From assembly GCA_046563655.1 (NCBI GenBank), contig JAJCTO010000017.1, positions 62,001 to 126,000 on the forward strand: a stretch of DNA of 64,000 nucleotides, written 5' to 3'. This document shows, piece by piece, positions 1-63,400 of this stretch. Under the pieces are notes generated by a model. It was not told where the DNA came from. It made no database searches and saw nothing but the letters and a program-made list of their open reading frames with translations. Position 1 is the first letter of the stretch. Each line of letters opens with the position of its first letter. The position numbers and the translations under genes are program-made. Source of the stretch: Yuukianura sp. NJ FZ-2021 (lineage: Eukaryota).

Positions 1-3000
1 AACACTTCAGATGGGCTTTCACAAGCATAATTTCGGTTTGCAGTTTTGACTCCTCAGATAGCCCAGAATGACTTTTTGGTGAGTTTTAAATGAAAAAAAT
101 GGATTTTACGGAGAAAAATTGAGCTTGGAACACTTCAGATCAGCTTTCAGAAGCATAATTTCGGTTTGCAATTTTGACTCCTCAGATAGCCCAGAATGAC
201 CTTTTGAAGAGTATTTAATGAAAAAAATGATTTTTTGGTGAAAAATTGAGTCTGGAACACTTAAGATGGGCTTTCACAAGCATAATTTCGGTTTGCAGTT
301 TTGACTCCTCAGATAGCCCAGAATGACTTTTTGGTGAGTTTTAAATAAAAAAAAATGGATTTCTCGAAGAAAATTGAGCTTGGAACACTTCAGATGGGCT
401 TTCACAAGCATAATTTCGGTTTGCAATTTTGACATCTCAGATAGCCCAGAATGACTTTTTGAAGAGTATTTAATGAAAAAAATGAATTTTTGGTGAAAAA
501 TTGAGCTTGGAACACTTCAGATGGGCTTTCAGAAGCATAATTTCGGTTTGCAATTTTGACTCCTCAGATAGCCCAGAATGACCTTTTGAAGAGTATTTAA
601 TGAAAAAAAAAATGATTTTTTGGTGAAAAATTGAGTCTGGAACACTTCAGATGAGCTTTCACAAGCATAATTTCGGTTTGCAATTTTGACTCCTCAGATA
701 GCCCAGAATGACTTTTTGGTGAGTTTTAAATGAAAAAAAAAATGGATTTTTCAGAGAAAAATTTAGCTTGGAACACTTCAGATTGGCTTTCACAAGCATA
801 ATTTCGGTTTGCAGTTTTGACTCCTCAGATAGCCCTGAATGACTTTTTGAAGAGTATTTAATGGAAAAAATGATTTTTTGGTGAAAAATTGAGCTTGGAA
901 CACTTCAGATGGGCTTTCAGAAGCATAATTTCGGTTTGCAATTTTGACTCCTCAGATAGCCCAGAATGACCTTTTGAAGAGTATTTAATGAAAAAAATGA
1001 TTTTTTGGTGAAAAATTGAGTCTGGAACACTTCAGATGGGCTTTCACAAGCATAATTTCGGTTTGCAATTTTGACTCCTCAGATAGCCCAGAATGACTTT
1101 TTGGTGAGTTTTAAATGAAAAAAATGGATTTTTCGGAGAAAAAGTGAGCGTGGAACACTTCAGATGGGCTTTCAGAAGCATAATTTCGGTTTGCAATTTT
1201 GACTCCTCAGATAGCCCAGAATGACTTTTTGGTGAGTTTTAAATGAAAAAAAATGGATTTTTCCGAGAAAAATTTAGCTTGGAACACTTCAGATGGGCTT
1301 TCAGAAGCATAATTTCGGTTTGCAATTTTGACTCCTCAGATAGCCCAGAATGACTTTTTGGTGAGTTTTAAATGAAAAAAATGGATTTTTCGGAGAAAAA
1401 GTGAGCGTGGAACACTTCAGATGGGCTTTCACAAGCATAATTTCGTTTTGCAATTTTGACATCTCAGATAGCCCAGAATGACTTTTTGAAGAGTATTTAA
1501 TGAAAAAAATGATTTTTTGGTGAAAAATTGAGTCTGGAACACTTCAGATGGGCTTTCACAAGCATAATTTCGGTTTGCAGTTTTGACTCCTCAGATAGCC
1601 CAGAATGACTTTTTGGTGAGTTTTAAATGAAAAAAATGGATTTTACGGAGAAAAATTGAGCTTGGAACACTTCAGATGGGCTTTCAGAAGCATAATTTCG
1701 GTTTGCAATTTTGACTCCTCAGATAGCCCAGAATGACCTTTTGAAGAGTATTTAATGAAAAAAATGATTTTTTGGTGAAAAATTGAGTCTGGAACACTTC
1801 AGATGGGCTTTCACAAGCATAATTTCGGTTTGCAGTTTTGACTCCTCAGATAGCCCAGAATGACTTTTTGAAGAGTATTTAATGAAAAAAATGATTTTTT
1901 GGTGAAAAATTGAGCTTGGAACACTTCAGATGGGCTTTCAGAAGCATAATTTCGGTTTGCAATTTTGACTCCTCAGATAGCCCAGAATGACCTTTTGAAG
2001 AGTATTTAATGAAAAAAAAAATGATTTTTTGGTGAAAAATTGAGTCTGGAACACTTCAGATGAGCTTTCACAAGCATAATTTCGGTTTGCAATTTTGACT
2101 CCTCAGATAGCCCAGAATGACTTTTTGGTGAGTTTTAAATGAAAAAAATGGATTTTTCAGAGAAAAAGTGAGCTTGAAACACTTCAGATGGGCTTTCACA
2201 AGCATAATTTCGGTTTGCAATTTTGACTCCTCAGATAGCCCAGAATGACTTTTTGAAGAGTATTTAATGAAAAAAATGATTTTTTGGTGAAAAATTGAGC
2301 TTGGAACACTTCAGATGGGCTTTCAGAAGCATAATTTCGGTTTGCAATTTTGACTCCTCAGATAGCCCAGAATGACCTTTTGAAGAGTATTTAATGAAAA
2401 AAAAATGATTTTTTGGTGAAAAATTGAGTCTGGAACACTTCAGATGGGCTTTCACAAGCATAATTTCGGTTTGCAGTTTTGACTCCTCAGATAGCCCAGA
2501 ATGACTTTTTGGTGAGTTTTAAATGAAAAAAAAATGGATTTTTCGGAGAAAAAGTGAGCGTGGAACACTTCAGATGGGCTTTCAGAAGCATAATTTCGGT
2601 TTGCAATTTTGACTCCTCAGATAGCCCAGAATGACTTTTTGGTGAGTTTTAAATGAAAAAAATGGATTTTTCGGAGAAAAATTTAGCTTGGAACACTTCA
2701 GATGGGCTTTCAGAAGCATAATTTCGGTTTGCAATTTTGACTCCTCAGATAGCCCAGAATGACTTTTTGGTGAGTTTTAAATGAAAAAAAATGGATTTTT
2801 CGGAGAAAAAGTGAGCGTGGAACACTTCAGATGGGCTTTCACAAGCATAATTTCGTTTTGCAATTTTGACATCTCAGATAGCCCAGAATTACTTTTTGAA
2901 GAGTATTTAATGAAAAAAATGATTTTTTGGTGAAAAATTGAGTCTGGAACACTTCAGATGGGCTTTCACAAGCATAATTTCGGTTTGCAGTTTTGACTCC

Positions 3001-5358
3001 TCAGATAGCCCAGAATGACTTTTTGGTGAGTTTTAAATGAAAAAAATGGATTTTACGGAGAAAAATTGAGCTTGGAACACTTCAGATGGGCTTTCAGAAG
3101 CATAATTTCGGTTTGCAATTTTGACTCCTCAGATAGCCCAGAATGACCTTTTGAAGAGTATTTAATGAAAAAAATGATTTTTTGGTGAAAAATTGAGTCT
3201 GGAACACTTAAGATGGGCTTTCACAAGCATAATTTCGGTTTGCAGTTTTGACTCCTCAGATAGCCCAGAATGACTTTTTGGTGAGTTTTAAATAAAAAAA
3301 AATGGATTTCTCGAAGAAAATTGAGCTTGGAACACTTCAGATGGGCTTTCACAAGCATAATTTCGGTTTGCAATTTTGACATCTCAGATAGCCCAGAATG
3401 ACTTTTTGAAGAGTATTTAATGAAAAAAATGATTTTTTGGTGAAAAATTGAGTCTGGAACACTTCAGATGAGCTTTCACAAGCATAATTTCGGTTTGCAA
3501 TTTTGACTCCTCAGATAGCCAGAATGACTTTTTGGTGAGTTTTAAATGAAAAAAAAAATGGATTTTTCAGAGAAAAAGTGAGCGTGGAACACTTCAGATG
3601 GGCCTTCACAAGCATAATTTCGGTTACAATTTTGACTCCTCAGATAGCCCAGAATGACTTTTTGAAGAGTATTTAATGAAAAAAAAATGATTTTTTGGTG
3701 AAAAATTGAGCTTGGAACACTTCAGATGGGCTTTCAGAAGCATAATTTCGGTTTGCAATTTTGACTCCTCAGATAGCCCAGAATGACCTTTTGAAGAGTA
3801 TTTAATGAAAAAAAATGATTTTTTGGTGAAAAATTGAGTCTGGAACACTTCAGATGGGCTTTCACAAGCATAATTTCGGTTTGCAGTTTTGACTCCTCAG
3901 ATAGCCCAGAATGACTTTTTGGTGAGTTTTAAATGAAAAAAATGGATTTTTCGGAGAAAAAGTGAGCGTGGAACACTTCAGATGGGCTTTCACAAGCATA
4001 ATTTCGTTTTGTAATTTTGACATCTCAGATAGCCCAGAATTACTTTCTGAAGAGTATTTAATGAAAAAAATGATTTTTTGGTGAAAAATTGAGTCTGGAA
4101 CACTTCAGATGGGCTTTCACAAGCATAATTTCGGTTTGCAATTTTGACTCCTCAGATAGCCCAGAATGACTTTTTGGTGAGTTTTAAATGAAAAAAATGG
4201 ATTTTTCGGAGAAAAAGTGAGCGTGGAACACTTCAGATGGGCTTTCAGAAGCATAATTTCGGTTTGCAATTTTGACTCCTCAGATAGCCCAGAATGACTT
4301 TTTGGTGAGTTTTAAATGAAAAAAAAAATGGATTTTTCAGAGAAAAATTTAGCTTGGAACACTTCAGATTGGCTTTCACAAGCATAATTTTGGTTTGCAA
4401 TTTTCACTCCTCAGATAGCCCTGAATGACTTTTTGGTGAGTTTTAAATGAAAAAAATGGATTTTACGGAGAAAAATTGAGCTTGGAACACTTCAGATGGG
4501 CTTTCAGAAGCATAACTTCGGTTTGCAATTTTGACTCCTCAGATAGCCCAGAATGACTTTTTGAAGAGTATTTAATGAAAAAAATGATTTTTTGGTGAAA
4601 AATTGAGTCTGGAACACTTCAGATGGGCTTTCACAAGCATAATTTCGGTTTGCAGTTTTGACTCCTCAGATAGCCCAGAATGACTTTTTGGTGAGTTTTA
4701 AATGAAAAAAAAATGGATTTTTCGGAGAAAAAGTGAGCGTGGAACACTTCAGATGGGCTTTCACAAGCATAATTTCGTTTTGCAATTTTGACATCTCAGA
4801 TAGCCCAGAATGACTTTTTGAAGAGTATTTAATGAAAAAAATGATTTTTTGGTGAAAAATTGAGCTTGGAACACTTCAGATGGGCCTTCACAAGCATAAT
4901 TTCGGTTACAATTTTGACTCCTCAGATAGCCTAGAATGACTTTTTGGTGAGTTTTAAATGAAAAAAATGGATTTTACGGAGAAAAATTGAGCTTGGAACA
5001 CTTCAGATGGGCTTTCAGAAGCATAATTTCGGTTTGCAATTTTGACTCCTCAGATAGCCCAGAATGACCTTTTGAAGAGTATTTAATGAAAAAAATGATT
5101 TTTTGGTGAAAAATTGAGTCTGGAACACTTCAGATGGGCTTTCACAAGCATAATTTCGGTTTGCAGTTTTGACTCCTCAGATAGCCCAGAATGACTTTTT
5201 GGTGAGTTTTAAATAAAAAAAATGGATTTCTCGAAGAAAATTGAGCTTGGAACACTTCAGATGGGGTTTCACAAGCATAATTTCGGTTTGCAGTTTTGAC
5301 TCCTCAGATAGCCCAGAATGACTTTTTGAAGAGTATTTAATGAAAAAAATGATTTTTT
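1..5358. repeat. 128-bp satellite DNA array (two monomer types, A and B)
   Basis: AACACTTCAGATGGGCTTTC recurs every ~128 bp (1, 129, ...). The shared core is followed by either GAAGAGTATTTAATGA7TGATTTTTTGGTG (type A) or GGTGAGTTTTAAATGA7TGGATTTTTCGGAG (type B). Confidence 0.98.
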
Positions 5359-5382
5359 TGGGTTTATTTTAGTTTCACAGTC

Positions 5383-5399
5383 ACCTGCCAAAGGCAGGT
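5383..5399 (-). other. 3' UTR stem-loop of CRE-A
   Basis: ACCTGCC-AAA-GGCAGGT perfect 7-bp stem. The same stem is present in CRE-B at 58504-58520. Confidence 0.75.
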
Positions 5400-5427
5400 T
5401 GAGAAAAGAAGTAGGATTTAAGTTAGA

Positions 5428-7038
5428 TTATAATATGAATAACTCGTAAAGATCTTTTCCTGAGGGTAAGGTTCCCAAGATTGAGCAGGAGTTTCCGCGT
5501 TGAACAGCTAGGCTTATTCGTTGTAGGAAGAAGGTCGTGGCTCGTTTATCTCCAGATGCTTCTGACAGCCGATGTCCGATTTGTTTTAGTAGACGAAGAC
5601 CTTCGGATCCGAATACACCTGATGTCTCGACGGCAATGATGGATACGACGAAGCGAGATTCTAGGTCACGATAGAGATGATGTTTGTGTGTCTCTGCTAA
5701 TTCGGCTGCATGACCATAGCGGGAAGACGATGTCGAAAGGTAGGAATTTGCATAAGTGTCACGGCAGGTAAAGTCCCAGCAGAGGCAGCGTCCTGAGCTC
5801 CAAGGAATGAGAGTAACACCATCTGGCCGTTTGCCATCGGATCTGCTGCAGCCGACAGGTTCTTTAATTGAAGGAAATCCAGCGGTTTGTAATGCTCTGA
5901 AGATTATGTCGTTGACTGAGTTGTGACGCGAGTGTCTTCCGGCGCTACGCTTACAGCTTAAACCGTGGAGACCGTTACTTGACACCGGAGCACCGCACGA
6001 GCAGATATGAGGTTGGCATATATCAGTTCCTAGGCGAAGAGCACAAGAAATCCTAAAAGATTCGTCCGAAAGTAGAGTTCCAAGTTGTCCGGAGGGAATT
6101 GCGTGTAACCAATCTCCAGAATGTGGTGCAGCGGCAGCCAGTAGTCTTGCTTTGTCGATAAGGGTTGAAGAGTTCTGAACTAGGGAAGAAGAAATTTGCT
6201 TAAAGACTTGAATTTCCCAGAGGTTTTGAGATTTTTTGTCCTGTGGAATAACGAAGCCCAATTGAGACCAGTTGAACAAAGCCAAATCCATTGAATTGTC
6301 GAAGGGTGACAGGGAAGACGGCAGAAATGTAGAAATTAGCTCCGCACAACTATGGACTGATGCCAAAAACGAAAATGTAGCGCAGTCCTTAGCGTGGCGA
6401 ACTCCTAATCCGCCCAAGTTCACCGGTAGACTTAACTGAGACCAAGCGTGTGAAGACAAAGTAGAATTGAGAATCGATTCCATCACTGCACGTAGTGCAC
6501 AGTCGTATTCATCGAGAAGGTCGGTTTCCAGAAACGAAGGAGCACATCTGAGAAAATATAGGAGGCTTGGGGTGGAAATTGAAGCTCGAAGCAGGTAGAA
6601 CGCAATGTGGGCAGGTATGTCCGACAACTTAGATGAGAGTGACTTGAAGTTCTCTGTTTTGCATTTGAGAATCCGACGAGACGATTCTTTGAAAAGAGGC
6701 GCTCCTAGAAGTTCAGCTTGATCATAATCAGGGAAGATGATGTCTGGAGAAACAGATTGGAATGATTGGACGATTGAGCGGGACTCAATTGCTTCTGCAC
6801 TTAGAATGAAGACTTCACATTTTCTTAGGTTAAGTTCTAGTCCAAACGAAGAGGCTTCTCTTTGGATGTATTTGAGATTTTCGAGAACGACATCCGGAGT
6901 ATCGGCAATCGTTGCGTCATCTAAATACCAGATGTTGACATCAGTGGATAATGAAGAGGCCAATTGGTGGATGGTTAAAGCGAAAAGAGCAGGACCAAGG
7001 GGATCCCCTGTTGCACTCCTAGTTTCGATTTGATGCAA
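5428..7038 (-). CDS. CRE-A ORF, C-terminal part: RT catalytic core, thumb, zinc knuckle and RLE endonuclease
   Basis: GDPLGP, WYLDD, GLELNLRKC, LPVNLGGLG, CSCG..HGLSC, RH, RPDG, WDFT, K..LY. Confidence 0.9.
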   Translation of the reverse strand: MHQIETRSATGDPLGPALFALTIHQLASSLSTDVNIWYLDDATIADTPDVVLENLKYIQREASSFGLELNLRKCEVFILSAEAIESRSIVQSFQSVSPDIIFPDYDQAELLGAPLFKESSRRILKCKTENFKSLSSKLSDIPAHIAFYLLRASISTPSLLYFLRCAPSFLETDLLDEYDCALRAVMESILNSTLSSHAWSQLSLPVNLGGLGVRHAKDCATFSFLASVHSCAELISTFLPSSLSPFDNSMDLALFNWSQLGFVIPQDKKSQNLWEIQVFKQISSSLVQNSSTLIDKARLLAAAAPHSGDWLHAIPSGQLGTLLSDESFRISCALRLGTDICQPHICSCGAPVSSNGLHGLSCKRSAGRHSRHNSVNDIIFRALQTAGFPSIKEPVGCSRSDGKRPDGVTLIPWSSGRCLCWDFTCRDTYANSYLSTSSSRYGHAAELAETHKHHLYRDLESRFVVSIIAVETSGVFGSEGLRLLKQIGHRLSEASGDKRATTFFLQRISLAVQRGNSCSILGTLPSGKDLYELFIL

Positions 7039-10000
7039 GCAGAGTCGTAGTAGAGATCTGAATCGTGCGAATAAGCTTCAGAGACGAATTTGTAGAAGTC
7101 TGGAAGTATGGTCTTCACAATGTCCAGCATACGGTCTCTTCTAATTAAGTTGAAGGCATTGCGAAAGTCCATCTTGAGTAGAACCTTGGCAGAACCATGG
7201 TTGGCATTACAGAAGATTCTGGCAGCGTGGGCGACGGCTTCAGCACCATTCTTGATTCCAACGCCAACTTGGATCGGGCTTAAGGTTGAAGTAATGACAT
7301 TCAACGAGTGAGATAGGATAAGTTTAGACACGAGGCGTCTCCAAGTAAGGCCGATTGCGATAGGACGAATGCCTCCATTCTTCTTTTGGATTGCTAATAG
7401 AGTTGCGCCAAAAAAAATTCGTCTCACTTCATCGGGAAGAGAACCATTTGTAATGAAGTTACACAATCCAGAAACTGATGCTAGAAGAGCTTCTCCTTCA
7501 TCGCCTGAGGACTTTGAAGTTAGTTCCTTTAGAATCTGTGGACGAAAAGAGTCCAGGCCTCCGGCGGATCCATTTGGGAATGACGAGATGGCTTTGATGA
7601 CGTGACAGTTTTCAAAGATAACCTCAGATCTCGGAGGTGCGGCAGGAAACGAGGTTGGTAGTGGATGATCGGGATGCAATTGGTGGAGAATGTTCAAAGT
7701 ATCAGAGTCTTTGGAGGCTATGCAATCTTCGGAGACCAGGATTCGAACTGCACCGCGTATATCCCCGTCGGCTAGTTTAGATTGAATGACCTTTGAGGAG
7801 TTACAGTGATGTGAGGACGGATGATGGCCACGAGAGAATTGCTTGAATTGATGATGGGAGATGTTTGCAGGCGCCTCAGAAGTGATACGGCTAGCGTTTG
7901 TCTTCACCCATTTGGTTAGATTTGTGACAGCATCGTCTTTTGACGGAATGGGAAAAACTTGGTAGGGGAAGTAGAATAACTTTGCCCAAGAATCTGTAGA
8001 GTTGTGCTCGATTGCTTGGTCGATGATGGTGGACAGGGCAGAGGCGGTCGTTCTTCTTGCTCCTTTTGGAATGTGTTTGAGTGTGGACGTAGATTTTCTT
8101 AAGTCAGCAAGCTTTAGCCCAAGAGAAGTTGTAGAGATATCTTCATTGGAAGGAGCGGACCAAGTGATGTCGAAGTAAGATTGTTGAGAATGTTTGCGTC
8201 CGCCGGCTCGTGTTTTGGTAATGTTTGGAAAAGCTTTTAATAGTTTCAATCCAATTGTCGCGTCGGCTAAAGGTTTGATCTTCACATCAGAGCAAAAAGA
8301 ATGGTATTTATCTTTTAGATCTTGTTTCTTGATCAAAGCTCCAGAAGCCTCCTGAATGTTGTTCTTGATCCAGTCGTCAGTTAGTTTAGAAATTTGTGAT
8401 TTTGTTAAACACTCGGATGAGAAGCTGGAATCTGCTTCATTGGTAGCACGAACTGGTGAAAAGTTGGAAGCGTCATCATTGGTAGCACGAACTGATGAAA
8501 AGTTGGGAGCAGCTTCATTGGTAGCACGAGCTGATGAAAAGTTGGAAGAGTCTTCGTTGGCAGCAGTATCTGATGAAAAGTTGGAAGCGTCTTCATTTGT
8601 AGCACGAACTGATGAAAAGTTGGAAGCAGCTTCGTTGGTAGCACGAACTGATGAAAGTTTGGAAGCATCTTCATTGGTAGCACGAGCTGATGAAAAGTTG
8701 GAAGCGGCTTCGTTGGCAGCAGTAACTGATGAAACGTTGGAAGCGTCTTCATTTGTAGCACGAACTGATGAAAAGTTGGAAGCAGCTTCGTTGGTAGCAC
8801 GAACTGATGAAAAGTTGGAAGCGTCTTCATTGATAGCAGGGACTGATGAAAAGTTGGGAGCGGCTTCATTGGTAACACGAACTGATGAAAAGTTGGAAGA
8901 GTCTTCGTTGGCAGCAGTATCTGATGAAAAGTTGGAAGCGTCTTCATTTGTAGCACGAACTGATGAAAAGTTGGAAGCAGCTTTGTTGGTGGCACGAACT
9001 GATGAAAGTTTGGAAGCATCTTCATTGGTAGCACGAGCTGATGAAAAGTTGGAAGCGGCTTCGTTGGCAGCAGTAACTGATGAAAAGTTGGAAGCGTCTT
9101 CATTTGTAGCACGAACTGATGAAAAGTTGGAAGCAGCTTCGTTGGTAGCACGAACTGATGAAAAGTTGGAAGCGTCTTCATTGATAGCAGGGACTGATGA
9201 AAAGTTGGGAGCGGCTTCATTGGTAACACGAACTGATGAAAAGTTGGAAGCGTCTTCATTGATAGCAGGGACTGATGAAAAGTTGGGAGCGGCTTCATTG
9301 GTAACACGAACTGATGAAAAGTTGGAAGAGTCTTCGTTGGCAGCAGTATCTGATGAAAAGTTGGAAGCGTCTTCATTTGTAGCACGAACTGATGAAAAGT
9401 TGGAAGCAGCTTTGTTGGTGGCACGAACTGATGAAAGTTTGGAAGCATCTTCATTGGTAGCACGAGCTGATGAAAAGTTGGAAGCGGCTTCGTTGGCAGC
9501 AGTAACTGATGAAAAGTTGGAAGCGTCTTCATTTGTAGCACGAACTGATGAAAAGTTGGAAGCAGCTTCGTTGGTAGCACGAACTGATGAAAAGTTGGAA
9601 GCGTCTTCATTGATAGCAGGGACTGATGAAAAGTTGGGAGCGGCTTCATTGGTAACACGAACTGATGAAAAGTCGGAAGAGGTTTTGCTGGCAGCAGGAA
9701 CTGATGAAAGTTTGGAAGCATCTTCATTGGTAGCACGAACTGATGAAAAGTGGGAAGCGTCTTTGTTGTTTGTTGAAGCAGAAGCACCGGAATCGAAGTG
9801 ATTTGATGTTGTAGAAGTTGCCATGGAAATTGATTTCATTTTACTTCGATTTCTTAATTTTCGCTGCATCGTAATTGTTGCTATGGAGATGAAGTGAAGG
9901 TTGAATGTAGTTGTTGAAAACTTTGTAACTGTTGAAGGAGCGAATGTGACTGGGGGTCCAAGTGACGAAACAGGTCCGCTAAGGCCGGATTGGTCACGTA

Positions 10001-10061
10001 ATTTTGTGAAACTTATCACAAGTTGACCAGCACAACTAGCTCTGCCAGATGATATGAGCAA
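6975..10061 (-). CDS. CRE-A ORF, N-terminal part: 13-aa repeat region, RFX-like winged helix, RT domains 0-4 (first ATG at 9869; frameshift at ~7005-7008)
   Basis: RT motifs SAGGLDSFRP, GIRPIAIG, QVGVG, DFRNAFN, GVQQG. One G is missing from CAG GGG GAT CCC (QGDP), shifting the frame into the next ORF. Confidence 0.88.
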   Translation of the reverse strand: MLISSGRASCAGQLVISFTKLRDQSGLSGPVSSLGPPVTFAPSTVTKFSTTTFNLHFISIATITMQRKLRNRSKMKSISMATSTTSNHFDSGASASTNNKDASHFSSVRATNEDASKLSSVPAASKTSSDFSSVRVTNEAAPNFSSVPAINEDASNFSSVRATNEAASNFSSVRATNEDASNFSSVTAANEAASNFSSARATNEDASKLSSVRATNKAASNFSSVRATNEDASNFSSDTAANEDSSNFSSVRVTNEAAPNFSSVPAINEDASNFSSVRVTNEAAPNFSSVPAINEDASNFSSVRATNEAASNFSSVRATNEDASNFSSVTAANEAASNFSSARATNEDASKLSSVRATNKAASNFSSVRATNEDASNFSSDTAANEDSSNFSSVRVTNEAAPNFSSVPAINEDASNFSSVRATNEAASNFSSVRATNEDASNVSSVTAANEAASNFSSARATNEDASKLSSVRATNEAASNFSSVRATNEDASNFSSDTAANEDSSNFSSARATNEAAPNFSSVRATNDDASNFSPVRATNEADSSFSSECLTKSQISKLTDDWIKNNIQEASGALIKKQDLKDKYHSFCSDVKIKPLADATIGLKLLKAFPNITKTRAGGRKHSQQSYFDITWSAPSNEDISTTSLGLKLADLRKSTSTLKHIPKGARRTTASALSTIIDQAIEHNSTDSWAKLFYFPYQVFPIPSKDDAVTNLTKWVKTNASRITSEAPANISHHQFKQFSRGHHPSSHHCNSSKVIQSKLADGDIRGAVRILVSEDCIASKDSDTLNILHQLHPDHPLPTSFPAAPPRSEVIFENCHVIKAISSFPNGSAGGLDSFRPQILKELTSKSSGDEGEALLASVSGLCNFITNGSLPDEVRRIFFGATLLAIQKKNGGIRPIAIGLTWRRLVSKLILSHSLNVITSTLSPIQVGVGIKNGAEAVAHAARIFCNANHGSAKVLLKMDFRNAFNLIRRDRMLDIVKTILPDFYKFVSEAYSHDSDLYYDSACIKSKLGVQQGIPLVLLFSL
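8160..8381 (-). other. RFX-type winged-helix DNA-binding domain within CRE-A ORF
   Basis: TDDWIKNNIQEASGALIKKQDLKDKYHSFCSDVKIKPLADATIGLKLLKAFPNITKTRAGGRKHSQQSYFDITW aligns without gaps to the RFX DBD pattern W-l--n-----G--l-r--l---Y---C------P-----fG------F-----rR-G-Rg-S---Y--i (alignment by eye). Confidence 0.75.
8415..9765 (-). repeat. In-frame 39-bp coding minisatellite (~34-35 copies of NFSSVRATNE[A/D]AS)
   Basis: CTGATGAAAAGTTGGAAGC recurs every 39 bp on the + strand. A 9-unit higher-order block occurs about three times. Confidence 0.97.
9817..9830 (-). promoter_or_regulatory. RFX X-box-like motif ATTTCCATGGCAAC
   Basis: Matches the X-box consensus RTHNYYWTRRNRAC at all 14 positions and contains an in-frame ATG (MATST). 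Confidence 0.55.
9877..9890 (-). promoter_or_regulatory. RFX X-box-like motif ATCTCCATAGCAAC
   Basis: Matches RTHNYYWTRRNRAC. It lies exactly 60 bp from the first motif and just upstream of the first ATG (9869). Confidence 0.55.
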
Positions 10062-10147
10062 AAGGAGGATAGTTCACTAAGTAAAGCCTAAAAAAACTGA
10101 AAAATGTGGAGCGAATTTTTCGTGACTTTCTAAATTTTTAATTTTTT

Positions 10148-10929
10148 TGATTTTTTGGTGAAAAATTGAGCTTGGAACACTTCAGATGGGCTTTCAGAAG
10201 CATAATTTCGGTTTGCAATTTTGACTCCTCAGATAGCCCAGAATGACTTTTTGAAGAGTATTTAATGAAAAAAATGATTTTTTGGTGAAAAATTGAGTCT
10301 GGAACACTTCAGATGGGCTTTCACAAGCATAATTTCGGTTTGCAGTTTTGACTCCTCAGATAGCCCAGAATGACTTTTTGGTGAGTTTTAAATGAAAAAA
10401 AAAATGGATTTTTCGGAGAAAAAGTGAGCGTGGAACACTTCAGATGGGCTTTCACAAGCATAATTTCGGTTTGCAGTTTTGACTCCTCAGATAGCCCAGA
10501 ATGACTTTTTGGTGAGTTTTAAATGAAAAAAATGGATTTTACGGAGAAAAATTGAGCTTGGAACACTTCAGATGGGCTTTCACAAGCATAATTTCGTTTT
10601 GCAATTTTGACAACTCAGATAGCCCAGAATTACTTTTTGAAGAGTATTTAATGAAAAAAAAAATGATTTTTTGGTGAAAAATTGAGTCTGGAACACTTCA
10701 GATGTACTTTCACAAGCATAATTTCGGTTTGCAGTTTTGACTCCTCAGATAGCCCAGAATGACTTTTTGGTGAGTTTTAAATGAAAAAAATGGATTTTAC
10801 GGAGAAAAATTGAGCTTGGAACACTTCAGATGGGCTTTCAGAAGCATAATTTCGGTTTGCAATTTTGACTCCTCAGATAGCCCAGAATGACCTTTTGAAG
10901 AGTATTTAATGAAAAAAATGATTTTTTGG
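10148..10929. repeat. 128-bp satellite array (continued)
   Basis: About 6 monomers, same orientation. Confidence 0.97.
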
Positions 10930-11240: not shown

Positions 11241-13013
11241 ATGGCATCTAACTCTGGTTCATCGTCAAATATGACAATTTACCAAACACGAAAGTTTGAC
11301 ACAGCGTCAATCACCAAGTTGAATGGTGATAATTATCGGGTTTGGCGGATGAGGCTGACTAGTCTCTTTGAAACTCATAAAGTGATGGACATTGTGGATG
11401 GTTCCAAAGTGAGACCAACGACTTCCGGGGCTGAGCAAGAAAAATGGGACCTTGGAAACAACGAAGCAGTCACTACGATGCTTCTGAGCATGGCCGATAC
11501 AGAGGTAGACTCTGTTTCGGGCTGTAAAACGGCAGCTCAAATATGGACTAAATTATCATCAATCTACGAGAGCGTAAGTGGGGAATCTAAGCAAGCCCTC
11601 TGGCAGAAATATTACGGTGTTTCTACGGGCCCCGGGAAAAATGCTCTGAAAGCGATGATAGAGATCCAAAATTATGCATCCCAATTACGGTCAATTGGAG
11701 CGACGGTAGAAGAAGATTCTGAGGTGGCCCGAATCCTCTCGAGTCTTGTCGAAGACAAGTATCGCCATTTCCGCGAGGCATGGCGATCAGTGGACACTAA
11801 GAAGCAGACCACTGCTCTCCTCCTTTCTCGTCTAAAAACGCTAGAATTGGAGGAGGTGGAGACCAAAAATGCCAAAAAGGACTTGGGAGAAAGTTCAAAA
11901 GCTTTCACTGTCAATAAGCAGAGAAAGCAGATGAAATCCAAAGAAGAAATGGATGAGCTGAAAAAGCGTACTAAATGCCACGTTTGTAAGTCACTTGGGC
12001 ACTGGAAAAGTGAGTGCCCAGAAAAAGCAAAAACCCAGCGTCCGACTGATCCTGCCAAGAAAAATGGTGAAAGTCCAAAAGGAGCTTACATGGCCGGAGG
12101 GGGTTTTTTGGAAAACGACTGGATCAACGACTCAGGAGCGGATCGACATTATTGTGGTCGCCGTGAATGGTTTTTTGAATACGAAAAGTATTCAAAACCA
12201 AGACCTGTCACTATTGCCGATAATTCAACGATGGATGCTATTGGCGTGGGGAAAGTGAGAGTGAAAGCCCTGATCAAAAATCAGTGGCGGGAAATTGAAA
12301 TACACAATGTCGTGCATATTCCGGGTGGGGCAAACCTTCTGTCGGAAAACGTTCTTCTCCAGAAGGGATTTAAAGTGAGTAAATCTCACGGTAAAATTAC
12401 GTATTTTCGAGAAGGAGAGGAGGACATCCAGGCTGAACAGAAGGATGGAGTTCAAGTGATGTTGTTTAGACCTGTTCCAAACCAAGCCTTAGCCTGTGTA
12501 AAACAAGCTATTTGGCATAAGAGACTCGCCCATGTGAATTGCGAATTTTTGAAGAAAACCGCAGAAAAACAGGCAGTTTACGGTCTGGAAAATATGAAAT
12601 TAGAAAAAGTGGTGTGCGAATCTTGTCTTCTGGCGAAGTCAACCCAACAAAGCTACAAAACCACTGAAAAACAACGAGATTACGCTGTTGGTGAATGCCT
12701 ACACGCTGACCTTGCCCACGCCACTGCATTTTCACACAGAGGAAATAAGTACTTTCTCGTGGTGAAAGACGAAGGAAGCAGTTTCCGCCAGGTTTACCTT
12801 CAGAAAACGAAGGATCAAACCGTAAACAACATGAAAGACGCAATCAACTTCATTTCCAACCAAACCGGAAATTCGGTGAAAATTTTTCGATCCGATAATG
12901 GCTCAGAATTCTGCACAGGAGTTTTAAGGACTTTCTCTCAGAAAAAGGGATTCAGTTTGGGCTTAACGCTCCATACACAAGCCAAAGTAATGGGTTTGTT
13001 GAAAGGGAAGTGA
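11241..13013 (+). CDS. gag-pol: Copia Gag, protease and integrase N-terminal part (frameshift at ~12915-12925)
   Basis: KLNGDNYRVW, CCHC knuckle CHVCKSLGHWKSEC, protease WINDSGA, WHKRLAH..CESC, HADL, RSDNGSEF. Confidence 0.93.
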   Translation: MASNSGSSSNMTIYQTRKFDTASITKLNGDNYRVWRMRLTSLFETHKVMDIVDGSKVRPTTSGAEQEKWDLGNNEAVTTMLLSMADTEVDSVSGCKTAAQIWTKLSSIYESVSGESKQALWQKYYGVSTGPGKNALKAMIEIQNYASQLRSIGATVEEDSEVARILSSLVEDKYRHFREAWRSVDTKKQTTALLLSRLKTLELEEVETKNAKKDLGESSKAFTVNKQRKQMKSKEEMDELKKRTKCHVCKSLGHWKSECPEKAKTQRPTDPAKKNGESPKGAYMAGGGFLENDWINDSGADRHYCGRREWFFEYEKYSKPRPVTIADNSTMDAIGVGKVRVKALIKNQWREIEIHNVVHIPGGANLLSENVLLQKGFKVSKSHGKITYFREGEEDIQAEQKDGVQVMLFRPVPNQALACVKQAIWHKRLAHVNCEFLKKTAEKQAVYGLENMKLEKVVCESCLLAKSTQQSYKTTEKQRDYAVGECLHADLAHATAFSHRGNKYFLVVKDEGSSFRQVYLQKTKDQTVNNMKDAINFISNQTGNSVKIFRSDNGSEFCTGVLRTFSQKKGFSLGLTLHTQAKVMGLLKGK

Positions 13014-13255
13014 GAATTGAGCGAGAAGCGGCAAGAGCAATGCTAATTGAATCGGGATTGGGCGAGGAACACTGGGATGATGCGATTATTACAGCATGTT
13101 ATGTTTTGAATCGAACCTTATCCTCTAAAAATCGGGAGAAAACCCCGTTTGAATTAATTTTCAAGAAAAAGCCATCACTTCATCATGTTCGTGTTTTTGG
13201 GTCAAAAGCCTTTGCGCATGTCATGACTGGAGGGGAAGAAGAAGTGGGAAGCTAA
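13010..13255 (+). CDS. pol: Copia integrase C-terminal fragment (this frame extends upstream to ~12925: KGIQFGLNAPYTSQSNGFVER)
   Basis: ARAML, W.DA..TACYVLNR, TPFE, RVFGS. Confidence 0.85.
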   Translation: MRIEREAARAMLIESGLGEEHWDDAIITACYVLNRTLSSKNREKTPFELIFKKKPSLHHVRVFGSKAFAHVMTGGEEEVGS

Positions 13256-13259
13256 GTCG

Positions 13260-14447
13260 GTGGAGTGTATTTTGGTTGGGTTTAACGCCTCAAACAAAAA
13301 TTTCATCCCTTATGTACCAGCAGAAGGAAGGTACATCGAACAGGCGAAACACGTTCAATTCATTGAAACTATGGAAAAAGCTGTTCAAAAAGAAAGTGAA
13401 GCTGCGATTGAACAAAATGTAAAATCTTGTTCGACAAATGACGATGAAATGCAGTACTTAGATGAGGACAACTTAATTCCTTTTGGTTCACTTTCAATTG
13501 AAGAATTTCTTTCAAAAGAAGAGAATCCTTCTGAAAAAGGTTTAAGTCCCTCCCCCAAAAGGCCGAATCCAACAGTAAAAAGTGGAAACCAGAGCGATCA
13601 TGAGTCATCCCAGAGGAGTTGGGCAGAAGAAATTGAGGATGAGGAGGACGAAGGTCCAGTGGGACAGCGGAGATCCACAAGAATTAAAAAGCCTGTGGAG
13701 AGATTTCAAGCTGGATTCTCCGCCCTTTATGGAAATCGAATTTCGGAGCCTTCGAATTTTCAAGAAGCGATGAATTCTGACAATTCTGCCGAATGGACAG
13801 ACGCTATGGAGGCGGAGTTGCGCAGTCAACAGGAAAGTGAGACTTGGGTTCTTGTAAAAAGGCCCAACAAGACAAGAATACTTAAAAACCGATGGGTTTT
13901 TAAAGTAAAGAATAATCCGGACGGATCCTTGAATAAATTCAAAGCCCGGCTTGTGGTGAAAGGTTTTCACCAGATTCAAGGAGTGGACTATGAGGAGACA
14001 TTTGCGCCAGTATGCAGGTACGAGACCGTGAGAATCATGTTGAGTCTCGCAGCGGCGGAAGCGTGGGATGTTAAGCAACTTGACATCGCCACTGCTTTCC
14101 TCAACAGCCCGTTAAATGAAGAGTTATTCATGGAACAACCTCAGGGGTTTGAAATTGGTGACGGACTTGTTTGCAAATTACAACGCGGACTTTATGGGTT
14201 GAAGCAAGGCCCGCGTGCATGGAATGTGACCATCAATGCAAAATTGGTGGAAATGGGATTTCAAGCACTGGAAAGTGACCCGTGTGTGTACAAAAAGGAA
14301 AGGAAAAAGTCAGTGACCTTTATTGTACTGTTCGTTGATGATGGCCTAGTTCTTGGTGATTCATCAGAGGAAAATGAAGAAGAAGTGAAGGAGCTAGCAA
14401 AACATTCAAAGTCTCCATGCAGCCACTCGATAAATTTCTTGGAATAG
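13260..14447 (+). CDS. pol: Copia integrase tail, linker and reverse transcriptase
   Basis: EPSNFQEA, RWVFKVK, KARLVVKGF.Q, ETFAPV, LDIATAFL, LYGLKQ, FVDD. Confidence 0.92.
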   Translation: MECILVGFNASNKNFIPYVPAEGRYIEQAKHVQFIETMEKAVQKESEAAIEQNVKSCSTNDDEMQYLDEDNLIPFGSLSIEEFLSKEENPSEKGLSPSPKRPNPTVKSGNQSDHESSQRSWAEEIEDEEDEGPVGQRRSTRIKKPVERFQAGFSALYGNRISEPSNFQEAMNSDNSAEWTDAMEAELRSQQESETWVLVKRPNKTRILKNRWVFKVKNNPDGSLNKFKARLVVKGFHQIQGVDYEETFAPVCRYETVRIMLSLAAAEAWDVKQLDIATAFLNSPLNEELFMEQPQGFEIGDGLVCKLQRGLYGLKQGPRAWNVTINAKLVEMGFQALESDPCVYKKERKKSVTFIVLFVDDGLVLGDSSEENEEEVKELAKHSKSPCSHSINFLE

Positions 14448-15961
14448 AAATCAAAAAGAATGAAAAAGGAATTTTCATACACCAGCAAAAATACATCAAA
14501 GATACTCTTCTGCGATTTAAAATGTCAGAGTGCAAAACTGCTGACATTCCAATGAACCCAGGACTACAATTGGAAGCCAGTCGATCCGCTGACACCAATT
14601 ATGAATTTCGAGAGCTAATTGGGTCGCTTCTATTTTTGGCCCGATGTACTCGGCCTGACATCGCGTATCCAGTGCACTATTTGGCAAGATTTTTTTCAAA
14701 TTTCGAAAAGTCACATTTTGATGCAGCCAAGAAAATACTGCAGTACCTAAAAGGAACCATGGACCTTGGAATTCATTACGAAAGGTCAGAAGAAGGTCAA
14801 ATCATTTTTGGCTTTGTTGACGCCGATTATGGGTCCGACAAAAATTCGCGAAAATCGACGACCGGATGCTTGTTCACTGCCAATGGTTCGCCAATCGTTT
14901 GGATTAGCAAGCGTCAAACCTGTATTGCACTTTCAAGCACTGAAAGTGAATACATAGCCTTGGCCCACGCAGGGAAAGAAGCTATTTGGGTCACGCGGAT
15001 GTTTAGAGAATGTGGAATTACAGGAGCAATTGAAGATGGAATTTGTCTTAAGACAGATTCTCAGAGCGCGATAAAACTCGCGCGTTATCCTGAATACCAC
15101 GACAAAACTAAACATATCGACATCAGGCACCACTACATAAGATGGCTGGTGGAACGGAAACTCGTCAGTCTTGAACATCTTCCAGATCAAGCACAACCTG
15201 CTGATATCTTAACCAAATCAGTTCCAAAAGCAACTTTTGTCAAAAAGAGGTATCTGATGGGAATGGAGACTAATCCGAGTGAAAGTTCCAAGCGAAAAGC
15301 ACTGTCGAGTGTAGTAGTAGTTCCTAAAAGACCAAATGTGGCACTTAGCATTTTGAGTCTCATGCTCACTGTCTTAACGATAGGTGGAGCCACCGACGTC
15401 TACAAAACCGGTAGTCCGGTTTTATGGAGAAAAAGCCTTGATCCAGTGATCACAGGTTTCCAGGCGGTCACGATGAAAACTAAATTAATTTCTCCGTGTG
15501 ACCTAATGCCCTTAACGGGCATTGATCCACTCTTAGCCAATTTCATGAAAGAACGTTGTGAAAAGAGTTACGAAGAGATTTTTTTGAACAACCTTGAAAA
15601 GATCTGTCCCAGAAAGGCAGAAGTCGGCAAGAAAAACAAACGGGAAATTTTTTTGGCAATTGGCTTTGTCCTTATTGTGGCTTTAGCAAGCGTCGGCATT
15701 GGACTGGGCGGCTTTGCTGTTTCCAGGACTTATGAAATTGAAACAAAGGTCGACGAATTAAAGGAAGCCCTCAACGAGCTCGAAAGAAAAGTCTTTGTAA
15801 ATGAAAAAGAGATCGAAATCCTGCAAAAGGAAATTCGAAAACTGGCCTCAGAAGTTGACAAATTGGGAAACGATTTTTCACTGTTCCGAGAGGAGGTGGT
15901 GGAATTACAGTACATAATTTCTCACCTCATCAACAGATTTATGGAGGGAAACGGACCCTGA
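14417..15961 (+). CDS. pol: Copia RT C-terminus and RNase H fused in-frame to the N-terminal half of an env-like protein
   Basis: TRPDI, VDADY, SSTESEY, DSQSA, KHIDIR, ADILTK. With no stop, the frame continues into a hydrophobic signal-like segment, KKNKR followed by a hydrophobic peptide, and a heptad repeat. Confidence 0.9.
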   Translation: MQPLDKFLGIEIKKNEKGIFIHQQKYIKDTLLRFKMSECKTADIPMNPGLQLEASRSADTNYEFRELIGSLLFLARCTRPDIAYPVHYLARFFSNFEKSHFDAAKKILQYLKGTMDLGIHYERSEEGQIIFGFVDADYGSDKNSRKSTTGCLFTANGSPIVWISKRQTCIALSSTESEYIALAHAGKEAIWVTRMFRECGITGAIEDGICLKTDSQSAIKLARYPEYHDKTKHIDIRHHYIRWLVERKLVSLEHLPDQAQPADILTKSVPKATFVKKRYLMGMETNPSESSKRKALSSVVVVPKRPNVALSILSLMLTVLTIGGATDVYKTGSPVLWRKSLDPVITGFQAVTMKTKLISPCDLMPLTGIDPLLANFMKERCEKSYEEIFLNNLEKICPRKAEVGKKNKREIFLAIGFVLIVALASVGIGLGGFAVSRTYEIETKVDELKEALNELERKVFVNEKEIEILQKEIRKLASEVDKLGNDFSLFREEVVELQYIISHLINRFMEGNGP

Positions 15962-15977
15962 AAGAGACTGGCTCGGC

Positions 15978-58462: not shown

Positions 58463-60461
58463 TATTTTTATTGTCGCGAACTGTGATGAAAGATACAACT
58501 TACACCTGCCATTGGCAGGTTGAGAGATTTAAGAAGGACGTTAATGATTAAAGCATGTAGATTTCGTAGAGTTCTTTTCCGGGTGGTATGGTTCCCAATA
58601 TAGAAGTACTGTTTCCTCGCTGAATGGCGAGACTGATGCGTTGAAATAGGAAGGAACTTGCTCGATTGTCACCAGTGGCTTCTGAGAGGCGATGTCCAAT
58701 TGAATTGAGTAGACGTAAGCCTTCTTCTCCGTAAACTCCAGTTGTCTCCACTGCGATGATGGAAACGAAAAATCGACAATCAAGGTCACGGTAGATGTCA
58801 TGTTTTTGGATTTCAGCTAAGGCGGCAGGATGACCACGGCATGAAGATGATGTTGGTAGGTAAGATGCGGCAAATGTATCACGACAGGTGAAATCCCACG
58901 CAAGGCATCGACCGGACTTCCAAGGGACTAGAGTAACGCCATCCGGTCTCTTGCCGTCAGTTCTGGAACAACCGGAGGGTTCCTTGATGCAAGGGATGCC
59001 TGCTGTCCGAAGAGATCTGGAGATAATGTCGTTCACTGAAGCATGTCTTGCTTGTCTTCCTGCGCTTCTGGTGCAGCTTAATCCATGCAAACCATCACTC
59101 GAAACTGAAACTCCGCAAGGGCAGCGATGTTGTTGACAAATTTCAGTTCCTAAGCGGACAGCACAGGATATTCGGAAGTGTTCGTCGGCTAGGAGCGTTC
59201 CCAGTGGGGGGATGGAATAGCATGTAGCCAATCACCAGAGTGAGGGGCACAAACAGCGAGCAGACGGGCCTTGTCAGTCAGATTGGAGGAGTTTTGGACC
59301 AATTGAGAGTAAATTTGATTGAAAAGCTGCATTTCCCATCGTTTTTGAATTTTGCCGTCTATTGGTGTTTCGAACCCCATTTCGGACCAATTGAGAGAAG
59401 CGATATCCATGGAGGCGTCAAAAGGTGACAGATGAGATGGTAGAAAGGTAGAGATTAATTCGGCACAACTATTGACTGAGGCCAAAAACGAAAAAGTAGC
59501 ACTGTCAACTGCATGGCGAATACCTAAACCCCCTTGATTCACCGGCAATGAAGACTGGGACCAGGCTTCTTCAGTCAAATTTGAATTGAGGATTGATTCC
59601 AATACGTTGCGTAAAGATGAGTCATATGTTGAAAGAAGGTCAGTTTCCAGGAATGATGGAGAGCATCTGAGGAAATATAATAGTCTTGGAGTGGATACTG
59701 ATGCCCGAAGTAGGAAGAACGCTATATGGGCAGGAAGAGACGACAGTTTTGAGGATAGTGACTTGAAATCTTCTGTCTTCGATTTGAGAATACGTCGTGA
59801 AGAATCTCTGAAAAGAGGGGCACCCAAGAGTTCCGCTTGCTCCTTATCAGGAAACATAAAGTCAGGATAAATTGAGTGGAAGGCGTCGGAGATCAAAGTT
59901 TTTTCTGTCGTATCAGCAGATAGAATAATTACTTCACATTTCTTCATGTTTAGATGTAATCCAAATGAAGAGGCATTAGATTGGATCATTTTGAGATTTT
60001 CCAGTACAATGTCAGGAGAGTCAGCGATAGTTGCGTCATCTAAGTACCATGAATTCAATTCTGTAGTTAAAGATGAGGCTAGTGGATGAACGGTTAAGGC
60101 GAAAAGCGCAGGTCCCAGTGGGTCACCTTGTTGGATGCCTAACTTTGATTTGATACAGTTGGAATGGTGGAACAGGTCTGTTTCGATGGAATAAGCTTGA
60201 GAGACGAAATTAAAGAAATCCGGGAGATGGTATTTGACAGTTTTCAGCATCTGGTCCCTTCGGATGAGATTGAAGGCATTTCGAAAATCCATCTTCACGA
60301 GGAGTGATTGGCGTTGCAGTAGATTCTGGCGGCATGGGCGACAGCTTCAGCTCCGTTCTTGACGCCGACACCTACTTGAATTGGACTCAACACGGACGTG
60401 ATAACGTTCATCGAGCGAGCAAGGATTAGTTTTGAAACAAGACGTCTCCATGTGAGGCCGA
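58463..60461 (-). mobile_element. CRE-clade RLE non-LTR retrotransposon, 5'-truncated (CRE-B)
   Basis: 8-bp TSD TGGAAAAT (58455-58462 and 60462-60469); truncated at IGLTWRR inside the RT; AATAAA at the 3' end; protein collinear with CRE-A. Confidence 0.93.
58548..60461 (-). pseudogene. CRE-B RT and RLE in three frameshifted pieces (60295-60461, 59189-60298, 58548-59231)
   Basis: QVGVG, DFRNAFN, QQGDPLGP, WYLDD, CPCG..HGLSC, RH, RPDG, WDFT. Confidence 0.9.
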
Positions 60462-63400
60462 TGGAAAATACTTTTTTATATTTCCTACCGACTAGCACAT
60501 TAAATACATCATGTCTGAAAACTTCTGCACAACAATAGTCTGAAATTGTTATTTAGCACAGCATCACCATACCACAAGTGCATAAGTCTAACTACGATTT
60601 AGGTTTAACTTAGGGTTGAAACTATACAACAAGGTGTTAAACGTTCTGAAAAATGGAATTTATGCCTTGTTACCGCTCATACCAAAATTCTTGGTATTCA
60701 TCAAATAACGGTCCACTACGTCGTAGTGCATAACTGACTAAATCACACGTTGAAAAACATGTTGTCAGCGTCCATCCTCGAGCTCAAGCTAGAAGTGCCG
60801 GTGAAGTGTCCAGCTTGCCTTTATGTCAGATGCAAACCATGAGTTCTCACTTTGACACCATGAATCATGATAACTCACACGTCGATGGAACTTCAGGGAA
60901 AAACCGACTATTACATTTTTTAAATCAAAATTGAACATTCAGCATTTTTGGCCATTTTTGGATAAAATTTTTGGAAAATACTTTTTTATATTTCCTACCG
61001 ACTAGCACATTAAATACATCATGTCTGAAAACTTCTGCCCAACAATAGTCTGAAATTGTTATTTAGCACAGCATCACCATACCACAAGTGCATAAGTCTA
61101 ACTACGATTTAGGTTTAACTTACGGTTGAAACTACACAACAAGGTGTTAAACGTTCTGAAAAATGGAATTTATGCCTTGTTACCGCTCATACCAAAATTC
61201 TTGGTATTCATCAAATAACGGTCCACTTCGTCGTAGTGCATAACTGACTAAATCACACGTTGAAAAACATGTTGTCAGCCTCCATCCTTGAGCTTAAACT
61301 AGAAGTGCCGGTGAAGTGTCAAGAATGCCTTCACTTCACATGCAAACCATGCGTTCTCACTTTGACACCATGAATCATGATAACTCACACGTCGATGGAA
61401 CTTCAGGGAAAAACCGACTATTACATTTTTTAAATCAAAATTGAACATTCAGCATTTTTGGCCATTTTTGGATAAAATTTTTGGAAAATACTTTTTTATA
61501 TTTCCTACCGACTAGCACATTAAATACATCATGTCTGAAAACTTCTGCCCAACAATAGTCTGAAATTGTTATTTAGCACAGCATCACCATACCACAAGTG
61601 CATAAGTCTAACTACGATTTAGGTTTAACTTACGGTTGAAACTATACAACAAGGTGTTAAACGTTCTGAAAAATGGAATTTATGCCTTGTTACCGCTCAT
61701 ACCAAAATTCTTGGTATTCATCAAATAACGGTCCACTTCGTCGTAGTGCATAACTGACTAAATCACACGTTGAAAAACATGTTGTCAGCCTCCATCCTTG
61801 AGCTTAAACTAGAAGTGCCGGTGAAGTGTCAAGCATGCCTTCACTTCACATGCAAACCATGAGTTCTCACTTTGACACCATGAATCATGAGAACTCACAC
61901 GTCGATGGAACTTCAGGGAAAAACCGACTATTACATTTTTTAAATCAAAATTGAACATTCAGCATTTTTGGCCATTTTTGGATAAAATTTTTGGAAAATA
62001 CTTTTTTATATTTCCTACCGACTAGCACATTAAATACATCATGTCTGAAAACTTCTGCCCAACAATAGTCTGAAATTGTTATTTAGCACAGCATCACCAT
62101 ACCACAAGTGCATAAGTCTAACTACGATTTAGGTTTAACTTAGGGTTGAAACTATACAACAAGGTGTTAAACGTTCTGAAAAATGGAATTTATGCCTTGT
62201 TACCGCTCATACCAAAATTCTTGGTATTCATCAAATAACGGTCCACTTCGTCGTAGTGCATAACTGACTAAATCACACGTTGAAAAACATGTTGTCAGCC
62301 TCCATCCTTGAGCTTAAACTAGAAGTGCCGGTGAAGTGTCAAGCATGCCTTCACTTCACATGCAAACCATGCGTTCTCACTTTGACACCATGAATCATGA
62401 TAACTCACACGTCGATGGAACTTCAGGGAAAAACCGACTATTACATTTTCTAAATCAAAATTGAACATTCAGCATTTTTGGCCATTTTTGGATAAAATTT
62501 TTGGAAAATACTTTTTTATATTTCCTACCGACTAGCACATTAAATACATCATGTCTGAAAACTTCTGCCCAACAATAGTCTGAAATTGTTATTTAGCACA
62601 GCATCACCATACCACAAGTGCATAAGTCTAACTACGATTTAGGTTTAACTTACGGTTGAAACTATACAACAAGGTGTTAAACGTTCTGAAAAATGGAATT
62701 TATGCCTTGTTACCGCTCATACCAAAATTCTTGGTATTCATCAAATAACGGTCCACTTCGTCGTAGTGCATAACTGACTAAATCACACGTTGAAAAACAT
62801 GTTGTCAGCCTCCATCCTTGAGCTTAAACTAGAAGTGCCGGTGAAGTGTCAAGCATGCCTTCACTTCACATGCAAACCATGAGTTCTCACTTTGACACCA
62901 TGAATCATGAGAACTCACACGTCGATGGAACTTCAGGGAAAAACCGACTATTACATTTTCTAAATCAAAATTGAACATTCAGCATTTTTGGCCATTTCTG
63001 AATAGAAATTTTTGGAAAATACTTTTTTATATTTCCTACCGACTAGCACATTAAATACATCATGTCTGAAAACTTCTGCCCAACAATAGTCTGAAATTGT
63101 TATTTAGCACAGCATCACCATACCACAAGTGCATAAGTCTAACTACGATTTAGGTTTAACTTACGGTTGAAACAATACAACAAGGTGTTAAACGTTCTGA
63201 AAAATGGAATTTATGCCTTGTTACCGCTCATACCAAAATTCTTGGTATTCATCAAATAACGGTCCACTTCGTCGTAGTGCATAACTGACTAAATCACACG
63301 TTGAAAAACATGTTGTCAGCCTCCATCCTTGAGCTTAAACTAGAAGTGCCGGTGAAGTGTCAAGCATGCCTTCACTTCACATGCAAACCATGAGTTCTCA

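Follow-up and report, generated by a model that had tools for sequence, protein, structure and literature searches.

A stretch of 64,000 nucleotides from Yuukianura sp. NJ FZ-2021 (GenBank assembly GCA_046563655.1, contig JAJCTO010000017.1, positions 62,001 to 126,000; hereafter the window, with positions counted from its first letter) contains a non-LTR (long terminal repeat) retrotransposon that encodes an RFX-type winged-helix domain and carries, around its first start codons, two 14-mers resembling X-boxes. Has this element acquired the target sites of a transcription factor together with the DNA-binding domain? A preliminary description of the locus took the 14-mers for cognate sites; the tests run here do not support this step from an RFX domain to cognate sites with a promoter driven by RFX. 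Judged from the sequences of family copies and relatives, the two boxes are probably not a selected RFX-binding promoter element, and the recurrent feature of the family appears to be the combination of a start codon in a CCATGG or ACCATGG context with Ala-Thr codons, rather than paired RFX half-sites. The presence of an RFX module, with or without PHD or SAP domains, in R2-like elements is a more solid result than the boxes and a moderately novel one: no description of an RFX domain in a non-LTR retrotransposon was found in the literature searched, Repbase reports and subscription journals lying outside its scope.

The X-box-like pair

The two motifs are as follows:

9877..9890 (-): box 1, ATCTCCATAGCAAC, matching RTHNYYWTRRNRAC; one canonical RFX half-site, GTTGCT on the plus strand
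9817..9830 (-): box 2, ATTTCCATGGCAAC, matching the IUPAC string RTHNYYWTRRNRAC; contains the in-frame ATG of M16 (MATST)

Their positions, minus strand, shared orientation and spacing of exactly 60 bp are as first reported, and a scan of both strands of the window confirmed that these two are its only exact matches to RTHNYYWTRRNRAC. Box 2 holds the ATG of MATST and box 1 lies just upstream of the first ATG (9869), as also reported for the copy in the window; 7 nt separate the end of box 1 from that ATG. The first ATG is specific to certain copies, positions 9867-9869 being changed in variants. Both boxes lie in the frame of the open reading frame (ORF), 20 codons apart, where box 1 reads Ile-Ser-Ile-Ala-Thr (ISIAT) and box 2 reads Ile-Ser-Met-Ala-Thr (ISMAT). 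They share the codon string ATY-TCC-ATR-GCA-ACN, and their two nucleotide differences (ATC/ATT and ATA/ATG) each fall at a third codon position. The frame is open for 68 codons on the 5' side of the first ATG (9870-10073, minus strand), and an open frame upstream of the first ATG is also seen in two relatives, L001 (88 codons) and L003 (29 codons).

The similarity of the two boxes ends at the 14-mer. A larger local duplication as their origin was ruled out by the flanks, which are identical at only 20 of 60 positions, and an equally good local alignment of the two box regions arose in 232 of 2000 shuffles, so that the 12/14 likeness, taken alone, is not rare.

DAF-19 of nematodes is an RFX factor with an X-box, and RTHNYYWTRRNRAC is a degenerate form of the nematode X-box consensus. 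The general X-box, in the relevant passages of one source (PMC10530576), consists of two inverted half-sites, GTNRCC N0-3 RGYAAC. This general form has no match on either strand of the window. Each box instead combines a single canonical half-site, which reads GTTGCC or GTTGCT on the plus strand and fits GTTRCY perfectly, with a weak partner that has two or three mismatches; the 5' 385 nt contain two half-sites. To call the pair consensus X-boxes, as the preliminary description did, is thus correct for the degenerate nematode string and overstated for the X-box in general. Nor is the number of matches above that of shuffled controls, in which IUPAC matches of this quality occur about five times per 64 kb: the window has 2 matches to RTHNYYWTRRNRAC against 4.98 +/- 2.19 in shuffles, and two or more were found in 94 of 100 shuffles. 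Matches to the ideal palindrome GTTGCCATGGCAAC with three or fewer mismatches likewise number 2 in the window against 2.44 expected. Of count and clustering, only the clustering is unusual.

Variation among family copies and relatives

Family contigs from four sequencing runs, three of them from one sample and one (X2) with a second organism label, were mapped on 9740-10250; the best-matching run may derive from the same source as the window. At least 38 variable positions are among those listed for 9785-9994, five in the 28 bp of the boxes (9881 and 9884 in box 1; 9818, 9819 and 9821 in box 2, which also has insertions at 9815, 9818 and 9822) and 33 in the other 182 bp; among the positions listed the density is therefore 0.18 per bp in the boxes and 0.18 per bp outside them. 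Two diverged variants, X5 record 25 and X2 record 10, align across both boxes with 17-18 substitutions and 5-6 gaps in approximately 190 bp. Both canonical half-sites are lost in both of them, that of box 1 by a change at 9881 and that of box 2 by changes at 9818/9819/9821 and by insertions. Among the changes listed for the same two variants none falls in ATTTCC-ATG, and the ATG is kept.

The first ATG is lost from X1 variants b and c (9867-9869), and the substitution 9868 A>G accounts for a depth of 481.8 out of 937.3 in X1 and 1180.6 out of 1180.6 in X5. Since many variants have lost the first ATG, the ATG of box 2 is a likely main start, although the translation start of the element family is uncertain.

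Other irregularities of coverage were seen in the same region. Within the 5' leader, stretches of 9992-10135 are thinly covered or uncovered in X1 and X5. A contig of X1, with a depth of 313.3, connects 9900 directly to 10051 and represents a variant without 150 bp of the 5' leader, in which box 1 is consequently nearer to the 5' end of the element. In X2, depth rises to 480-780 over approximately 9812-9865, compared with 17-50 on either side, and the piece of about 50 nt between the boxes seems from these depths to be present in high copy elsewhere in the X2 genome.

Seven of 56 metagenome loci encoding relatives were RFX-positive with a hidden Markov model (HMM) built from the family. Over the 6,305 nt that precede the RFX domain in these seven, no exact match to RTHNYYWTRRNRAC occurs, matches with at most one mismatch number 11 against 10.3 expected, and half-sites occur at 1.27 per kb compared with 1.66 per kb in all loci. 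The core TCCATRGCAAC was also tried: 10 or more of its 11 positions are matched in one of the seven loci, which was equalled by 29 of 300 shuffles and is not significant.

The features that the relatives do keep concern the start codon and its codons. The closest relative, L001 (47% amino acid identity), has an in-frame GCA-ACA (Ala-Thr), reading P-A-T-F-I-M where the element in the window reads I-A-T-I-T-M, and its second ATG sits in ACCATGGCAAA; the second ATG of L003 is in ATGGCG. In the window and in both of these relatives, L001 and L003, Ala comes directly after the second Met (SISMA, SLTMA and LSTMA, respectively). Since the relatives retain these Met-Ala and Ala-Thr features and not the half-site pair, the recurring signal would be one of start codon context and codons. 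The preliminary description had itself named a lack of preferential conservation in related copies, and hits of this quality being common in background, as grounds on which its reading of the 14-mers as cognate, selected sites would fall, and this is largely what was found.

The retrotransposon and its RFX domain

The element and a related copy have the following parts:

5363..10148 (-): whole non-LTR retrotransposon, approximately 4.8 kb, a single insertion in a 128-bp satellite
9870..10148 (-): 5' leader, with the frame open upstream of the first ATG
6975..9869 (-): first ORF segment, 964 amino acids, with a short N-terminus, 13-residue repeats, the RFX domain and the N-terminal half of the reverse transcriptase
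8416..9763 (-): tandem repeat array of 34.6 copies of a 39-nt (13-residue) unit, between the ORF start and the RFX domain
8163..8381 (-): RFX-type winged-helix domain, residues 497-569, from Pfam PF02257, PDB sequence matches and fold matches
5428..6983 (-): second ORF segment in another frame, with the rest of the reverse transcriptase (YLDD), linker, CCHC knuckle and endonuclease
about 5953-6003 (-): CCHC knuckle, from a three-frame reading
about 5626-5928 (-): restriction-like endonuclease (RH...PD...D), from a three-frame reading
5383..5399 (-): hairpin ACCUGCC-UUU-GGCAGGU of the 3' untranslated region (UTR), shared with the second copy
58503..60462 (-): related second copy, 5'-truncated, with 70% nucleotide identity over 1,980 bp, in a different satellite

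That the element encodes an RFX-like domain together with a reverse transcriptase has been upheld. The match to PF02257 scores 40.1 bits against a cut-off of 27 (E=5.6e-10) and covers residues 497-569 and profile positions 4-76 of 79. A phmmer search with the domain matched RFX5 (8zjr_M) with E=7.8e-8 and RFX1 (1dp7_P) with E=0.003. An AlphaFold model of the domain, built on eight family sequences (predicted local distance difference test, pLDDT, 84.5), was matched by Foldseek to the same two structures, 8zjr_M (E=1.1e-5, template modelling (TM) scores 0.80/0.88) and 1dp7_P (E=1.8e-5, TM scores 0.76/0.89), with a root-mean-square deviation of 1.4-1.5 A, the next match having E=0.19. From the sequence matches and the predicted structure, the domain is a genuine RFX-type winged helix.

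The element domain thus resembles the cellular factors represented by human RFX1 (1dp7) and RFX5 (8zjr) in its fold and in a PF02257 score above the gathering threshold, and a GTTRCY half-site stands in each box; the domain is 23-28% identical to theirs. Its wing reads TRAGGRKHSQQSYFDI, compared with RRLGTRGNSKYHYYGL in RFX1 and RRLGGRGQSKYCYSGI in RFX5; in the alignment to both, SQQ replaces SKY in the wing and IGL replaces FGK in helix 3 of the window's sub-lineage, and R, GGR, S and Y are retained. The DNA-contacting residues of the RFX wing and helix 3 are reportedly those described by Gajiwala and co-workers in 2000. A further difference from cellular RFX factors is that no RFX dimerisation domain was detected by Pfam in the ORF, where the only other matches were to RVT_1 and, below threshold, to IL11, and that the boxes lack a second good half-site.

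The remainder of the protein places the element among R2-like non-LTR retrotransposons with a restriction-like endonuclease, as indicated by a profile of 25 family members, of which positions 247-931 (reverse transcriptase, linker, knuckle and endonuclease) align to the R2 protein 9nl3_A with E=3.3e-29. The family profile was needed for this alignment; protein P0002 alone had no match in PDB. Residues C161, C163, H173, C177, R186, H187, D237, K267 and E286 of the knuckle and endonuclease region are invariant in the family. The domain order of reverse transcriptase, linker, CCHC knuckle and PD..D endonuclease is present, and the ORF of the copy in the window is split by one frameshift: the first segment reaches a stop after the frameshift near 6985, and reading resumes in the other frame up to the stop at 5428. 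The 13-residue repeat unit is NFSSVRATNEDAS-like. L001 also has N-terminal tandem repeats, at about 700-1200 and of different sequence (SEIQDSAL-like). The open reading frames at 8356-9801 (plus strand) and 8405-9727 (minus strand) are by-products of the 39-nt repeat.

The same hairpin stem, ACCUGCC-NNN-GGCAGGU, is found in the 3' UTR of both copies despite their overall identity of 70%, with loops that differ (UUU in the first copy; AAU in the second, at 58504-58520). Folding of the hairpin gives z = -3.92 in the first copy and -1.90 in the second, and it could serve the reverse transcriptase as a recognition element. The 5' 359 nt show no unusual RNA folding (z = -0.11 against shuffles), and Rfam gave no match with E<=1 over 5200-10400, an HDV-like (hepatitis delta virus-like) ribozyme included.

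The 128-bp satellite that received the element occupies 1-5357, 10149-10926, 17200-40602 and further stretches of the window, and a direct repeat of this satellite of about 10-12 bp, CCAAAAAA(A)TC, is present at both element junctions (10160-10149 and 5362-5351). The second copy, which lacks the 5' region and is uninformative on the boxes, sits in a second tandem repeat of longer period (flanks 58100-58500 and 60463-64000), outside the 128-bp satellite, so that the family does not seem to be bound to a single satellite site. Both insertions, the only two seen, are at A/T-rich sites without an evident common sequence. There is no GTTRCY half-site within about 260 bp on either side of the insertion site of the first copy, and around the second copy a single one is found in each flank, at a distance of about 200-350 bp. 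Recognition of an X-box in the satellite target by the RFX domain was rejected because of this absence of half-sites within about 260 bp of the first site, and because the best X-box-like strings of the satellite have two mismatches to the degenerate consensus.

RFX modules are not confined to this element. Among 62 protein matches to the family, precomputed annotation gave PF02257 in four, PHD in five and C2H2 in two, and RFX is combined with PHD or SAP in several relatives. Members of the clade were seen in contigs from soil metagenomes and among records for springtail, moth, beetle and sponge; a scan of viral contigs for close relatives found none. About ten loci of one large-contig metagenome assembly (L036, L038-L045 and L053) have near-identical matches, with 40-41% identity to the query over residues 126-465; these represent a multi-copy relative in which the family-built HMM detects no RFX domain.

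Competing explanations and related systems

The explanation given slightly better than even credence is that the boxes are an incidental coding or start-context motif of one subfamily and that the RFX domain is an integration targeting module. The likeness to X-boxes would then arise incidentally from the start-codon context (CCATGG) and the Ala-Thr codons (GCA-ACN) of a single young subfamily, with no binding by RFX. The RFX domain would act as the zinc-finger/Myb module does in R2, holding the target DNA or chromatin while target-primed reverse transcription proceeds. For restriction-like-endonuclease LINEs (long interspersed elements), passages of PMC5678591 describe the N-terminal domain as a DNA-binding module at the integration site.

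A doubtful alternative, in essence that of the preliminary description, is that the boxes function as RFX-type sites in the youngest subfamily. They would belong to an internal promoter or enhancer to which host RFX binds, giving expression in the germ line or in ciliated cells, or to which the RFX domain of the element binds as feedback, or both. Several observations favour it and weigh against an incidental origin. Under a first-order Markov model, an exact calculation gives 0.23 expected matches to RTHNYYWTRRNRAC in the whole element, about 0.005 expected cases in the element of a second same-strand match within 100 bp, and only 0.02 expected same-strand pairs within 100 bp per window, and it is a striking coincidence that the pair, at its spacing of 60 bp, falls in an element encoding a domain of RFX fold. 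The half-site GTTGCY is perfect in both boxes, and box 2 has two mismatches to GTTGCCATGGCAAC. In X1 the window-like version, with both boxes intact, has the greatest depth of any contig spanning them (455.5), which suggests that the youngest subfamily keeps both boxes, and contig depth is not equal to copy number; X1 variants b and c retain the half-site of box 1, the single box 1 change of variant b, at 9884, leaving the consensus matched. L001 has a GGCAAC half-site that ends 7 nt before its first ATG, the same offset as that of box 1, and L003 has CATAGCAAC 58 nt before its first ATG. The equal densities of variation in boxes and flanks are those of the variable positions listed. On the other side stand those equal densities, the loss of the half-sites from both variants that span the two boxes, the absence of an exact upstream X-box from all seven RFX-bearing relatives and the failure to match the general X-box consensus; in addition, the boxes lie approximately 260-330 nt inside the element and not upstream of a mapped start site, no RFX dimerisation domain was found by Pfam in the ORF, and the sequence of the wing has diverged.

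It is also conceivable, and quite improbable, that the 14-mers act in RNA, either by setting the context of the translation start or, being near-palindromic (CCAUGG), by mediating pairing or dimerisation of the element RNA. The Met-Ala ATG of box 2 does have a CCATGG/ACCATGG context that is kept in L001 and in the diverged variants, and it is the likely main start given the loss of the first ATG in many variants, but the 5' 359 nt fold no better than shuffles, Rfam has no match, and box 1 has ATA rather than ATG, with no variant at 9882 among those listed. Very improbable is the proposal that the RFX domain of the element binds the boxes as DNA in integration, for instance to recognise the 5' end of its own element or to home into copies already present. 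It would accord with the presence of boxes and RFX domain in one element and with the binding of DNA at the integration site by the N-terminal domain of R2-type elements, as described in passages of PMC5678591; however, neither of the two insertions in the window is within or beside another copy, the two occupy different satellites, no GTTRCY half-site lies within about 260 bp of the first, and the single one in each flank of the second is about 200-350 bp away. A composite account is rather unlikely: an R2-like lineage would have exchanged its zinc-finger/Myb module for RFX, often with PHD or SAP, and its youngest subfamily would then have evolved a phased pair of half-sites by which host RFX or its own protein switches it on or throttles it.

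The explanation preferred here, of an incidental motif and a targeting module, may be set beside known systems. The element resembles R2 and other restriction-like-endonuclease LINEs (R4/Dong, HERO, NeSL and CRE) in having one long ORF that encodes a DNA-binding module at the N-terminus, a reverse transcriptase, a linker, a CCHC knuckle and, at the C-terminus, a PD..D-type endonuclease, and it resembles R2 and its kin in its location in tandem-repeat DNA, its short 3' UTR with a hairpin and the occurrence of 5'-truncated copies. In contrast to R2, it has at the N-terminus an RFX winged helix, joined in relatives by PHD and/or SAP, instead of a zinc finger/Myb module, it is not in ribosomal DNA but at unrelated sites in two satellites, and Rfam found no HDV-like ribozyme in it. 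R2-type elements are classically co-transcribed with their target and not self-promoted, whereas human L1 and other LINEs have internal promoters in the 5' UTR that carry sites for host transcription factors. Putative factor sites downstream of the 5' end of the element would, by analogy, be a point of likeness to the internal promoters of LINEs such as human L1.

If the boxes do work, the element would be a rare case of a retrotransposon that has captured the DNA-binding domain of a transcription factor plus its target sites, and they would offer a route to germ-line or cell-type-specific activation. Independently of the boxes, a widespread R2-like clade uses RFX modules (plus PHD or SAP) in place of the zinc finger/Myb, which bears on the evolution of site choice and on R2-based tools for gene insertion.

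The window contains several other mobile elements. A Copia-type LTR element with gag, integrase and RVT_2 is present at 11241-16970 (plus strand) in the same satellite-rich region, and a BEL/Pao-type element with Peptidase_A17 and DUF5641 at 49598-54107 (plus strand). Two piggyBac-like transposase ORFs of identical length (DDE_Tnp_1_7; 42425-43111 and 47238-47924, minus strand) are found inside a duplicated segment of approximately 4.9 kb, with repeats at 41009/45918 and 41678/46492.

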